A stretch of DNA of 64,000 nucleotides from Escherichia coli (GCF_003334385.1 NZ_QOWN01000022.1); one strand, 5' to 3'; numbered from the stretch's first letter, positions 61,522-63,791 are shown. Numbers and translations are program-made. Notes: generated by a model not told the origin, from the sequence alone.

Positions 61522-61602
61522 TTTCTTACGTATAAACTGCTTCAATTTTGCTATGCTTCGCAAAGCTGTATCGCGAGGCGGATTGCAGACATGGACATCG
61601 TA

Positions 61603-61630
61603 AAAAAACCGCTTAATGCGGTTTTTTTAC
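61603..61630 (+). terminator. intrinsic terminator downstream of Q-like gene (tR'-like)
   Basis: aaaaaaaccgc-ttaat-gcggttttttt perfect hairpin with flanking A and T runs. Confidence 0.8.
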
Positions 61631-62565
61631 GTCAGGAAAGCAGGGGAGAATGCTGCTAGTTGGGCAACTGGTCTTTCTGCTCCAAATTATAACAGAGACC
61701 AGTTATAGTTTCGGTGCTGTGTTTTTTTTACAATATTGTGATAACACATTGCTGGCGGGAGTTTTGATATTTCTTGGCAGGGGCTGATGATGCGTTATCC
61801 TGATGTCGTCAACTCATATAAAATGAGATGAGAGATCATTGCAGGGTGGTTTGTAATTCGCTGTTTAGCGGGACAATATGTTGTCTGATACAAGACACCC
61901 GACGCCTCAGATTACTATAATAAAGACGAAGCATCCTTTGTATTGACCAACCGCCTGTTTAGGCGGTTCTTTCTGGGCTGGTTTATTGTATGCCAAATGA
62001 TTATTAAAAAGGTTGTGTTAATAACAAAATCCGAAATAATATGCCTGCATATTTTTATCTTGCTTATATTCTGCATATTGTGCATAGCAGGCTCATCCCT
62101 GCAATCAAAACTGTATGATGAGTATTTTTTGTTTTCCTTTTTTCCAGTCATCTGATGATGACCTGCTTCTTTTTAATCCGGATCGACATCAGTTTTTTAA
62201 GATAATTCCTGCGAGTTATATGCATAAATGCCACAAACTCCGCATTTTATGTGGTTGGGAGTTGCCGGGCGCGCAGTGAGTTTGCTAAGAAAACTCCTGC
62301 ATGGTGAATCCCCCTGTGCGGTGGGGTGATACCATTAACCTTTTCTGTCGCCGACAGGTATCACGAACATTTTGTTCACCGGGAGGCACCCGGCACCATG
62401 CACTTCAATAGATTCTCTCCACATTATGGATATTCTTTCAGAATATCCCACGCAGACTTTGTGTAAATGTTAACAAATGTGCGTTTTATTTGATCTGATT
62501 CGCTGTTTGAGCGTCCAAAACAACGGTATATATAATCCTTTACTATATGACATATGTGAGGAAAA

Positions 62566-62994
62566 ATGGGTTTTCGTAGCGCATCAATTCTTACGTTGAT
62601 TATTAGTGGGATTATTATCGGGTGCACTGATGCTGTATCGACAAATTATCATGACCGTACATCATATTACTCCGATAAAGCAATAGAGACACAGTATGTG
62701 AGTTCATCTGAACGTACTTCTGATGTTAGTGAGGATATCCGTCTGTATGCCCATCAAATCAAGAGCGCCATCGAAAAACAGTTCGGGGATGCGAGTAAGT
62801 ATTCAGGAAAAGAGTGTACACTGAGAATGCATATGGCCCCGAATGGCCTTCTACTGGAGGTTAAAAGAGAAAGTGGAGACCTCGATTTATGTCGTGAAGC
62901 GATGAATGCGATAAAGAATGCTGATATACCTGCCCCCCCTTCGCCGGAAGTATATAAAGTATTTCAAAATGGGGTGCTGGATTTTAAACCCTGA
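62566..62994 (+). CDS. lipoprotein with TolA domain III-like C-terminal domain
   Basis: 142-aa ORF; signal peptide plus lipobox IIGC; C-terminus YAHQIKSAIEKQFGDASKYSGKECTLRMHMAPNGLLLEVKRESGDLDLCREAMNAIKNADIPAPPSPEVYKVFQNGVLDFKP closely parallels recalled E. coli TolA C-terminus. Confidence 0.75.
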   Translation: MGFRSASILTLIISGIIIGCTDAVSTNYHDRTSYYSDKAIETQYVSSSERTSDVSEDIRLYAHQIKSAIEKQFGDASKYSGKECTLRMHMAPNGLLLEVKRESGDLDLCREAMNAIKNADIPAPPSPEVYKVFQNGVLDFKP

Positions 62995-63144
62995 TATTTA
63001 TTGTTTTGTAATAAACGGTTTCGGCTTAGGTTTGTTCTGACACAGCTACGGCACTGAGCTAAATTTAGCGGATAGTCAGCTCTGAGCCAGTGGCGGACGT
63101 AACAACTACTATTGCTGAGATTTTAATGGATTGAGGAGCAAGAA

Positions 63145-63540
63145 GTGGGATTAAAGAAAATCGTTATGTTGACTTTTTGGGTCGGTTTTGTTGCGGGATG
63201 CACACCTTTACACCCTTCAGATTGCCACAAAACTACTGCTACAGGTAGTTGCAGTTCAGGACGCTGGGATGATCAGGATGAATGGGGGGCGCAAGCGCGG
63301 GGAATCAGAGCTGCAATTAATGCCAAACTTGATGAGCCGCATAACTGGAAAGGGAAAAAATGCAGGTTGCATATGGAATTCTCTCAGGATGGCACGGCGT
63401 TAAAAATATCTACCAGTAACGGTGATAAAGCCTATTGCGAAGCGATAAAGTCCGCAGCTCATAAAGCCAAATTTCCGGCCTTCAACAATCCGGAAGTCTA
63501 CAGAGATTTTCAGAAATCTGGCTTTGACATGCGAGGTTAG
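63145..63540 (+). CDS. second, diverged lipoprotein with TolA domain III-like C-terminus
   Basis: 131-aa ORF (GTG start, GAGGAG RBS); lipobox VAGC; shares KCxLxMxF...G..L.....GD...C.A...A.....P....PEVY..FQ pattern with upstream paralogue. Confidence 0.7.
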   Translation: MGLKKIVMLTFWVGFVAGCTPLHPSDCHKTTATGSCSSGRWDDQDEWGAQARGIRAAINAKLDEPHNWKGKKCRLHMEFSQDGTALKISTSNGDKAYCEAIKSAAHKAKFPAFNNPEVYRDFQKSGFDMRG

Positions 63541-63791
63541 CTCTTCAATTACTATATCTCATTCATAGCAAACTGACAGATTTGATGATGTTCTATATAC
63601 GAAACCTGTGATGTCAAGTCTGAGCTAATACAAATAAACATAATATCAGAGAAATACATTTTATTAGCTCGCTACGGCGAGCTTTTTATATTGCATCGTC
63701 TCCAGCATATATATCAATTAAGGCTCTGATTGATGTGTCTGAAAGCCTACACATAATAACTATGCCATCCGTTCCGTGCGGAGGTGAGGCT

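Follow-up and report, generated by a model that had tools for sequence, protein, structure and literature searches.

A TolA domain III lipoprotein cassette in the Q-to-holin interval of a Rac-type Escherichia coli prophage

Cargo genes between the antiterminator gene Q and the holin gene S are a known theme in lambdoid phages. In the Shiga toxin (Stx) phage 933W, this segment is arranged in the order Q, pR', tR', transfer RNA (tRNA) genes, stxAB, nanS-p and S. The names pR' and tR' denote the lambda late promoter and the terminator that is overridden by Q. The present analysis concerns the corresponding 2.27-kb interval (positions 61522–63791) of a 64,000-nucleotide (nt) stretch of E. coli DNA (GCF_003334385.1, NZ_QOWN01000022.1), which is referred to as the window in its full length. 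The interval belongs to a Rac-type prophage and carries two genes, designated P1 and P2, that encode lipoproteins resembling the C-terminal tip of the host protein TolA. It occupies the same position as the stx locus, downstream of Q, a presumed promoter and a terminator and upstream of the holin gene. Moreover, the noncoding RNA element STnc100 is found in both loci, and relatives of the P1/P2 cassette are located directly after tRNA-Ile/Arg and before nanS-p. The window interval differs from the stx locus in that it contains no toxin, tRNA or esterase gene. In addition, the Q-like protein of the window belongs to a DUF1133 branch related to the Q protein of phage 21 (Q21), and the cargo comprises envelope lipoproteins, whereas stx encodes a secreted toxin.

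Two further groups of described genes are comparable. Lambdoid morons include bor and lom of lambda and the porin genes nmpC (DLP12) and lc (PA-2), the latter two of which are located between Q and S. The morons are likewise accessory, bracketed by terminators and present or absent among close relatives, and they encode envelope proteins that are thought to benefit the lysogen. Their products are porins or a serum-resistance lipoprotein, whereas the window encodes a domain copy of a periplasmic hub protein of the host and has only a candidate for a promoter of its own. The exclusion lipoproteins Cor (phi80, N15), Llp (T5) and TraT (F) block the outer-membrane receptor FhuA or OmpA. They are similar to P1 and P2 as small lipoproteins of mobile elements, with protection of the carrier at the envelope as the function that P1 and P2 would have in common with them. 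However, Cor, Llp and TraT have no sequence or fold relationship with P1 and P2, and none of the three is known to act as a decoy.

P1 and P2 share the fold and the disulphide of TolA domain III (TolAIII; residues 334–421), and P1 additionally shares its β3 strand. TolA itself differs in having a domain I membrane anchor that couples it to TolQR and a long helical domain II, both of which are missing from P1 and P2. Unlike TolA, P1 and P2 are predicted to be lipid-anchored, probably to the outer membrane, and would therefore be unable to transduce force. The closest functional parallel is the periplasmic N1 domain of the g3p protein (g3p-N1) of Ff phages, which involves the same interaction pair and the same predicted tolerance to colicins and filamentous phages (PMC10424213). 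The logic is mirrored, in that an invader ligand blocks the host receptor in the g3p-N1 case, whereas a receptor copy would soak up the invader ligand in the case of P1 and P2. We give an even chance to an overall explanation in which the interval is a mosaic cargo slot, as the comparisons support, and its TolAIII-lipoprotein cassette would be transcribed late under Q and encode decoys. The arrangement is common and already annotated, and the cargo deserves more attention than the slot that contains it.

Variable content of the Q-to-holin interval

The last 20 kilobases of the window form a Rac-type prophage of which far more is preserved than of its K-12 remnant. The annotation of an identical region of E. 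coli SCU-104 lists, in order, racC, kilR, sieB, racR, ydaS/T/U/V, DUF1627, DUF977, iteA/iteS, DUF1367, DUF1364 and DUF1133, followed by two 'TolA' genes, a class II holin gene, rrrD, a lysis protein gene, trkG, a parB-like gene and the terminase gene. In the Rac prophage of K-12 MG1655, ydaW leads directly to the rzpR pseudogene, and the entire Q-to-holin region is deleted.

A sequence-only reading of the window had proposed that cargo fills the Q-to-holin slot, equivalent to that of stx, and had left room for the arrangement to be the conserved backbone of the phage family. The comparison of prophages upholds the first proposal and contradicts the second, as the same Q type is followed by different intervals and the cassette is also found behind another Q. 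The Rac-type prophages L006 and L020 contain the same DUF1367-DUF1364-DUF1133 (Q) genes and downstream trkG, with a shorter, different interval in which a 570-base-pair (bp) hypothetical gene and a lambda-family holin are found instead of the cassette. In O157-type prophages with this Q family, the interval consists of tRNA-Ile/Arg, TerB, DUF3927 and the NanS-p esterase. Locus L008 and phage mEp460_ev081 (LR597641.1, L002) contain the cassette with 99.9% identity, preceded by an 82-type Q and tRNA-Ile/Arg. In an O178:H19 prophage, a P1 homologue (67% amino-acid identity) adjoins the tRNA-Ile/tRNA-Arg pair on one side, with STnc100 copies and nanS-p following on the other, which is literally the stx position.

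Among 5,426 complete E. coli genomes, approximately 1,579 contain this Q type, 450 contain the interval (counted as present when at least 80% of it was found) and 774 contain the two-gene cassette. At an identity of at least 99%, the cassette is found in about 790 E. coli records. The P1/P2 genes occur in only one of 50,697 phage records (mEp460_ev081) and therefore reside mostly in resident prophages. The mEp460_ev081 genome contains two Q-annotated genes, hok/sok, rem, cspG and gnsB, and its holin is automatically annotated as 'tail fiber protein'; it looks like a phage that acquired Qin/DLP12-type prophage DNA. The base composition of the Q-to-holin interval (41.5% guanine plus cytosine (G+C)) differs from those of the genes from the NinB-like gene to Q (49.1%) and of the holin fragment (49.3%).

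These comparisons support the assignment of the interval as a slot for swappable accessory cargo, equivalent to the stx slot. The opposite explanation, that the interval is a fixed part of a 21-type lysis module and travels with the class II holin, draws on the contiguity of the cassettes of the window, L008 and mEp460 with an essD/S21-type holin, where the identity is high up to the holin start. This explanation is highly improbable. Same-Q prophages have other intervals, class II holins follow other contents, such as NanS-p, DUF1378 and DUF826 (L007) or an esterase (EDL933), and P1-type and P2-type genes are found singly and outside phages. Furthermore, a module-bound gene pair is at odds with the single phage record that contains the genes.

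The P1 and P2 lipoproteins

The P1 gene (62566–62994, + strand) encodes a 142-residue protein that consists of a signal peptide with the lipobox IIGC (Cys20), a linker of approximately 35 residues and TolA domain III. The P2 gene (63145–63540, + strand) starts with GTG and encodes a 131-residue protein with the lipobox VAGC (Cys19), the linker CHKTTATGSCSSGRWDDQDEWG and TolA domain III. P1 matches E. coli TolAIII structures with E = 5.3e-28, and its residues 55–142 are approximately 60% identical to TolA residues 334–421. P2 matches TolAIII with E = 5.2e-9 and an identity of approximately 30%. These matches and the lipobox in each protein agree with the two TolA-like lipoprotein genes of the sequence-only reading. 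P1 and P2 are paralogues with 29% identity to each other, and both belong to PHROG 5772, a family of unknown function. The Pfam family PF06519 (TolA domain III) is precomputed for P2 homologues.

The AlphaFold2 (AF2) model of P2 superimposes on the TolAIII structure 3qdp with a root-mean-square deviation of 1.1 Å and a template modelling (TM) score of 0.92. The predicted local distance difference test (pLDDT) score of the model is above 87 for residues 45–131 and below 50 up to residue 36, and residues 1–36 are predicted to be disordered. Both disulphide cysteines of TolAIII are kept in P1 and P2. P1 also retains the C-terminal β3 strand LDFKP, which includes the equivalents of TolA D418 and K420, and contains LLEVKR, which corresponds to the colicin A box of TolA (375-LLDIKP-380) in the form LLxxK. 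In TolA, backbone hydrogen bonds of D418 and K420 hold g3p-N1 and colicin N (ColN), and a proline at this site abolishes the binding of g3p-N1 and the ColN translocation domain (ColN-T) and gives a tol phenotype (PMC4339652). P2 contains GFDMRG instead of LDFKP, and the majority of its residues at mapped ligand-contact positions are not those of TolA.

The lipobox cysteine is followed by T-D in P1 and by T-P in P2. Aspartate is absent at position +2 in both proteins, and sorting to the outer membrane is therefore predicted for P1 and P2. The lipobox motif is kept in the relatives from plasmids, Enterobacter, Serratia and Klebsiella. The GTG codon at 63145 is preceded by GAGGAG at a distance of 6 nt and opens a signal peptide (MGLKKIVML...VAGC) that matches the plasmid copies. 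The RefSeq start is the ATG codon at 63166, from which the signal peptide would have no charged n-region, and the annotated P2 is probably too short. The RefSeq name of P1, 'cell envelope integrity protein TolA', is misleading. The NCBIfam TolA model TIGR02794 is matched only in its last 98 positions (265–362 of 362). P1 and P2 lack TolA domains I and II, have a lipoprotein N-terminus and are encoded in a prophage outside the tol-pal operon, and therefore they are not TolA orthologues.

Despite its predicted disorder, the P2 linker CHKTTATGSCSSGRWDDQDEWG (63220–63290, residues 26–48) hardly varies between Escherichia and Serratia. Its SG-W...EWG pattern is reminiscent of the colicin TolB box, DGSGWSSENNPWG, with a tryptophan (Trp) spacing that is one residue shorter in P2. 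In the searched literature, no phage or plasmid TolA-like lipoprotein is described, an absence that does not prove such proteins to be undescribed. A 'TolA' entry linked to a ciprofloxacin-induced gene of CP-933O (PMC11125564) was discarded as expression evidence; it refers to the tail-fibre gene EDL933_RS09825.

P2-type genes extend beyond prophages. Genes with about 88% amino-acid identity to P2 are present on 604 PLSDB plasmids. In conjugative I-complex plasmids (L004 and L016; IncK2/Z), the P2-type gene (87–88% amino-acid identity) is located approximately 70 nt after the nikB/MOBP relaxase gene, and in a pO157-type plasmid (L003, 5995–6426) it adjoins a nikB remnant. Outside phages, P2-type genes also occur singly on chromosomes; they are flanked by housekeeping-type genes in Enterobacter and adjoin GmrSD and HEPN genes in Serratia. 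Such isolated chromosomal copies point to a role during growth and not only at lysis. The pairwise ratio of nonsynonymous to synonymous substitution rates (dN/dS) of P2 ranges from 0.08 to 0.13 against the plasmid, Enterobacter and Serratia copies, and P2-type genes are under purifying selection. The pairwise dN/dS value of P1 is 0.34.

A third lineage with the lipoprotein and TolAIII layout is encoded on a Klebsiella IncFIB/FII plasmid (L017, 5812–6246), where the gene adjoins a thioredoxin-fold gene and its product begins with MNLRAF...LITAC and ends in ...ALDFRL. This lineage is present on about 310 plasmids, mostly of Klebsiella. Among the best 150 P1-related proteins, counted as representatives of 50%-identity clusters, 71 are 105–175 residues long, and at least 46 of those 71 have a lipobox-like motif. 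Most of them end in a ...KNxxLDF(K/R)x strand. The combination of a lipid anchor with the TolA tip has thus recurred, and selection acts on it. TolA-tip lipoproteins are common, being found in many Enterobacterales, in the 774 complete E. coli genomes and on approximately 600 plasmids, including pO157 and I-complex resistance plasmids.

Transcription signals, STnc100 and the borders of the interval

The left border of the interval is the Q-like late antiterminator gene (60979–61521, + strand), which encodes a 180-residue DUF1133 protein (Pfam E = 2.8e-107) with a weak match to PF06530 'Phage_antitermQ' (1.4e-4) and a match to PHROG 753 'anti-termination protein Q-like' (2e-79). As a single sequence, the protein matches the Q protein of phage 21 only with E = 0.27, whereas a profile of its 17-member family matches Q21 structures (6p18) with E = 5.5e-5 in a colinear manner over both ends. 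In a Foldseek search with the AF2 model, which is of moderate quality (mean pLDDT 70), the best ten matches are all Q21 (probability 1.00, TM 0.63–0.73 normalised to the target), and no other protein comes close. In O157-type prophages, the same DUF1133 family is found in the Q position, before tRNA-Ile/Arg, TerB, the NanS-p esterase and the holin. The Q-like protein is accepted here as a distant Q21-type antiterminator with a putative antitermination activity.

The right border is an S21-type (class II) holin gene (63792–64000, + strand) with the dual start MKSM, which is cut by the window end. Its start is preceded by the strong ribosome-binding site GGAGGTGAGG. The holin matches PHROG 9876 and PHROG 20, both of which are holin families, and RefSeq annotates it as 'class II holin family protein', with rrrD and a lysis protein gene next in order. 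The ends assigned earlier to the Q-like gene (61521) and to the holin start (63792) are reproduced by these matches, and ARAGORN and Rfam agree with the sequence-only reading that no tRNA gene is present in the window.

A conserved block (61518–61580, + strand) directly follows the Q gene and is presumed to contain the late promoter and the Q-loading region. It contains TTGATT (61518–61523), a 17-nt spacing, TTCAAT (61541–61546) and a second −10-like hexamer, TATGCT (61552–61557). In an alignment of four prophages with Q genes that are 76–92% identical, this 60-nt block is almost invariant, and divergence begins right after it. The consensus reads TTG(A/C)TT, 17 nt, TTCAAT, TA(T/A)GCT, GCAAAGCTGTATCGCGAGGCG, approximately 20 variable bases and a hairpin with a T run. 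We infer from this conservation that the block is a promoter. A Q21-type binding element was sought in the block, where no convincing direct repeat was found, and no site is assigned.

The block is followed by an intrinsic terminator in the tR' position (61599–61631, + strand), which is composed of a 14-bp stem and a T run. The stem is a perfect inverted repeat (61599–61612 and 61618–61631) flanked by A and T runs. The hairpin has a folding energy of −19.7 kcal/mol, compared with −3.7 ± 2.1 kcal/mol for shuffled sequences (z-score, z = −7.6), and it was missed by a consensus terminator scan because the A and T flanks pair with each other. A strong terminator had been placed at 61603–61630; the hairpin and T run stand, and the coordinates are now 61599–61631. 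All four aligned prophages have a hairpin with a T run at an equal distance after Q, with a different stem sequence in each. The invariant block and the terminator with its kept position fit the expectation for a unit of pR', a Q-loading site and tR'. An Rfam match to isrK at 61555–61628 is below the threshold (21.6 bits against 50, E = 0.15) and is not claimed; it overlaps the transcript of approximately 75 nt that is expected from the block to the terminator and that would parallel lambda 6S RNA or StxS. An Rfam match to STnc350 (22.2 bits against 60) is below the threshold and is not claimed either.

At the other end of the interval, a second intrinsic terminator is located between the cargo and the holin gene (63666–63683, + strand). 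It consists of a 7-bp stem with five GC pairs followed by TTTTTAT and folds at −13.0 kcal/mol (z = −3.4). Apart from the terminator palindrome, the direct and inverted repeats of the interval are limited to short chance pairs.

The noncoding stretch upstream of P1 (61522–62565) had been described as approximately 0.9 kb of AT-rich sequence without convincing open reading frames (ORFs). The stretch is indeed AT-rich (40.6% G+C against 48.4% for the whole window), and the small ORFs of 61463–62627 were rejected as genes, with a best PHROG match of E = 0.027 and none below 0.01. Its real length is 1,044 bp, and the description had overlooked a copy of STnc100 (Rfam RF02076; 62269–62455, + strand), which matches the full model (positions 1–206) at the gathering threshold with 86.6 bits against a gathering score of 47. 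The remainder downstream of the first terminator (61632–62268, no strand assigned) is an AT-rich, lineage-specific noncoding spacer with 39.5% G+C and no PHROG match for its ORFs. In a sensitive blastn search of the 50,697 phage records with 61631–62268, no match was found.

Promoter-like sites occur in both parts of the noncoding stretch. The spacer contains one at 61892–61921 (AAGACA, 18 nt, TATAAT). This site and a weak hairpin at 61950–61969 (ACCGCC...GGCGGT with a T-rich tail), approximately 30 nt past it, which together span 61892–61980, were set aside because the hairpin does not exceed shuffled sequences (z = −1.65). A candidate sigma-70 promoter for P1 is located at 62507–62536 (+ strand; TTGAGC, 18 nt, TATAAT) and agrees with the consensus at 10 of 12 positions. 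The promoter scan as a whole yielded 11 sites, compared with 8.1 ± 3.1 in shuffled sequences, which is not above chance, and the site at 62507–62536 is a candidate only.

STnc100 is a prophage RNA related to PasD and is typical of the Q-to-holin neighbourhood (bioRxiv 10.64898/2026.05.13.724894). In Stx2 phages, one STnc100 copy is located 75 nt downstream of stx2 (PMC12370729). The window copy resembles the STnc100/PasD family in its full length, a score above the gathering score and the usual neighbourhood of Q and holin/lysozyme genes, and it folds at −67.9 kcal/mol (z = −4.0). It differs in that it scores below its relatives (86.6 against 114–172 bits), is a recombinant of two lineages and has no canonical terminator hairpin. 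In an alignment with six other copies, the canonical CCCCTCTCCGGAGGGGCTTTTTT GC hairpin and U-tract terminator at the 3' end are replaced in the window copy by an AU-rich hairpin without a U run. Given this loss and the recombinant structure, the window copy may not yield a discrete small RNA.

The left edge of the cassette is a recombination joint (62375–62399, no strand assigned) in the conserved STnc100 core CACCGGGAGGCACCCGGCACCATGC. In 25-nt windows, the identity to mEp460 is 0.4–0.7 in most of those to the left of 62375 and 1.00 from 62375 on, where the window sequence is 100% identical to the STnc100 copy of mEp460_ev081 and L008. The identity to the copy of the DEF2 prophage shows the reverse pattern, with 0.76–1.0 per 25-nt window from approximately 62175 to 62399 and about 0.5–0.7 beyond. 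The DEF2-like and mEp460-like stretches overlap in the invariant core CACCGGGAGGCACCCGGCACCATGC. By this alignment, the window STnc100 is a chimera of two lineages, and the position of the cassette edge inside the core is taken as direct evidence of recombination at this site.

Stx-phage-like prophages contain head-to-tail STnc100 arrays (L005, 5468–8419; L007, 4577–5692) of four to five copies that are approximately 260 nt apart. The arrays are positioned between tRNA or cargo genes and nanS-p, and each canonical array copy terminates in a GC hairpin and a T run, so that several terminators stand in the way of the late transcript. The arrays could insulate the lysis genes and supply recombination sites. 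STnc100 is the sole sequence common to the window interval and the real Stx-phage intervals, and the joint within its core suggests that the element doubles as a recombination linker that shuffles cargo, stx included, among lambdoid phages.

Other features of the prophage and its surroundings lie outside the interval. An anti-phage pair of an ATPase and an S8 peptidase, IetA/IetS (RefSeq 'IteA/IteS'; 56283–59676), is encoded between the replication-region genes and the NinB-like gene, and IetS matches the PADLOC model PDLC02197 with 1.7e-300. The potassium transporter gene trkG (L001, 15582–17039), which lies past the window end, with the lysis genes on one side and the parB-like and terminase genes on the other, marks a second cargo slot of the same prophage and is retained in the K-12 Rac prophage as well. 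At the gathering threshold, Rfam also matches McaS (37786–37881), FnrS (41259–41376) and the RalA antitoxin RNA (45686–45864). McaS and FnrS belong to the host sequence on the left side of the prophage, and RalA is part of the Rac ralR/ralA toxin–antitoxin pair.

Possible roles of the cassette

The breakpoint in the STnc100 core marks the place at which a cassette of 1.4 kb was joined to the interval by recombination. In the proposed course of events upon induction, Q-modified RNA polymerase from the post-Q block would read through the terminator at 61599–61631, STnc100, P1, P2 and the terminator at 63666–63683 into the lysis genes, and the cargo proteins would thus be produced alongside the lysis proteins. 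In the lysogen, cargo expression, if any, would start from one or more promoters of its own, for which 62507–62536 is the best candidate, and would end before the holin gene.

For the proteins themselves, we favour, tentatively and at somewhat less than an even chance, a role as periplasmic TolAIII decoys that are tethered under the outer membrane, at the site of emergence of colicin translocation domains and g3p. Such decoys would capture the TolA-binding segments of invaders. For group A colicins and related bacteriocins, these segments are the translocation domains, and for pilus-specific filamentous phages, the N1 domain of g3p. Tolerance of the carrier to these invaders would result while its own Tol-Pal system works on. 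Periplasmic TolAIII was reportedly found to give colicin tolerance by Levengood-Freyermuth and co-workers in 1993. Binding to TolAIII is obligatory for group A colicins and for filamentous phages (PMC7391070, PMC4339652). In the mirror experiment, periplasmic g3p-N1 sequesters TolA, which makes the cells resistant to colicin A and lowers phage uptake by 4 logs (PMC10424213). The affinity of TolAIII for ColN-T is about 1–3 µM, and that for TolB is about 40–200 µM (PMC7391070 for TolB). As TolAIII binds invaders more tightly than TolB, a decoy could work without crippling Tol-Pal. I pili are the receptor of the filamentous phage If1 (PMC7911639), whose g3p was crystallised with TolA-C (2x9a). 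The plasmids with P2-type genes make I-type pili, the If1 receptor, which is counted in favour of the decoy role.

Several points weigh against this interpretation. The position of the genes in the late operon right before the holin gene also fits a role in lysis. The divergence of P2 at the contact positions implies that its ligand may differ. No PADLOC 2.0 defence model matches P1 or P2, in a search in which the neighbouring IetS served as the positive control (1.7e-300). On the side of expression, the Q-like protein is only distantly related to Q21 and its antitermination activity is a prediction, and promoter-like sites do not outnumber those of shuffled sequence. Finally, engineered periplasmic TolAIII makes cells leaky, and a decoy could therefore be costly (PMC6195910).

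The leakiness and the operon position lead to a different possibility, in which P1 and P2 are late-acting antagonists of Tol-Pal. Tethered TolAIII copies would titrate the TolB N-terminus just before lysis, stop the mobilisation of Pal, loosen the outer membrane or raise vesiculation and thereby help virion release. The genes are located directly upstream of the holin, endolysin and spanin genes in a presumably Q-dependent operon, P1 retains the β3 strand that is used by TolB, and periplasmic proteins leak from cells with engineered periplasmic TolAIII (PMC6195910). This possibility is nevertheless unlikely. Purifying selection acts on P2-type genes of plasmids and on single chromosomal genes with no lysis genes nearby, the prophage already encodes an Rz-type lysis protein, and related prophages manage without the cassette. 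Moreover, a terminator separates the cargo from the holin gene, and the affinity between TolA and TolB is weak. A target other than colicins or filamentous phages is less likely still. P2 might trap TolB through its Trp-rich acidic linker as a Pal mimic, or the proteins might act in conjugation or entry exclusion or in the exclusion of other phages. The near invariance of the linker CSSGRWDDQDEWG across genera, its possible resemblance to the colicin TolB box DGSGWSSENNPWG, the adjacency of the plasmid P2-type gene to a relaxase gene and the divergence of P2 from TolA at the mapped g3p, ColN and colicin A (ColA) contact positions are all compatible with such a target. The putative resemblance to the TolB box, however, is off by one residue in the Trp spacing, the model places little confidence in the linker (pLDDT below 50 up to residue 36), and we know of no exclusion protein with this fold.

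It is also conceivable that P1 and P2 are functionless, hitch-hiking remnants in largely defective prophages, as the genes are common in genomes and nearly absent from sequenced phages, and the K-12 Rac prophage lacks the whole region with no obvious harm. The state of the genes makes this improbable. The reading frames are intact, with lipoboxes and ribosome-binding sites; the low dN/dS of P2 (0.08–0.13) holds across genera and replicon types; the cassette is at least 99% identical in the approximately 790 E. coli records; and the lipoprotein and TolAIII layout recurs in several lineages.

Beyond this prophage, lipid-anchored stand-alone TolAIII proteins may constitute a widespread, unrecognised class of mobile-element immunity, with receptor decoys directed against Tol-dependent bacteriocins and filamentous phages and with P1 and P2 covering different invaders. 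This generalisation is more speculative than the decoy role of P1 and P2 itself. The class would include genes in prophage late regions, the relaxase neighbourhood of I-complex plasmids, pO157, Klebsiella IncF plasmids and chromosomal islets. Where a plasmid makes pili and thereby attracts filamentous phages, the decoy would protect the carrier from them. The TolB-box-like linker of P2 might also serve to trap TolB.

The analysis corrects two database entries: the name TolA does not apply to P1, and the start annotated for P2 probably lies too far downstream. The cargo represents a protein type for which no published function was found, a lipoprotein copy of the TolA tip, which is the docking site of group A colicins and filamentous phages. 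If the decoy role is true, a receptor-decoy mechanism joins the ways in which mobile elements protect their hosts, and it would matter for strategies in which plasmid-bearing bacteria are to be combated with pilus-specific phages or colicins.

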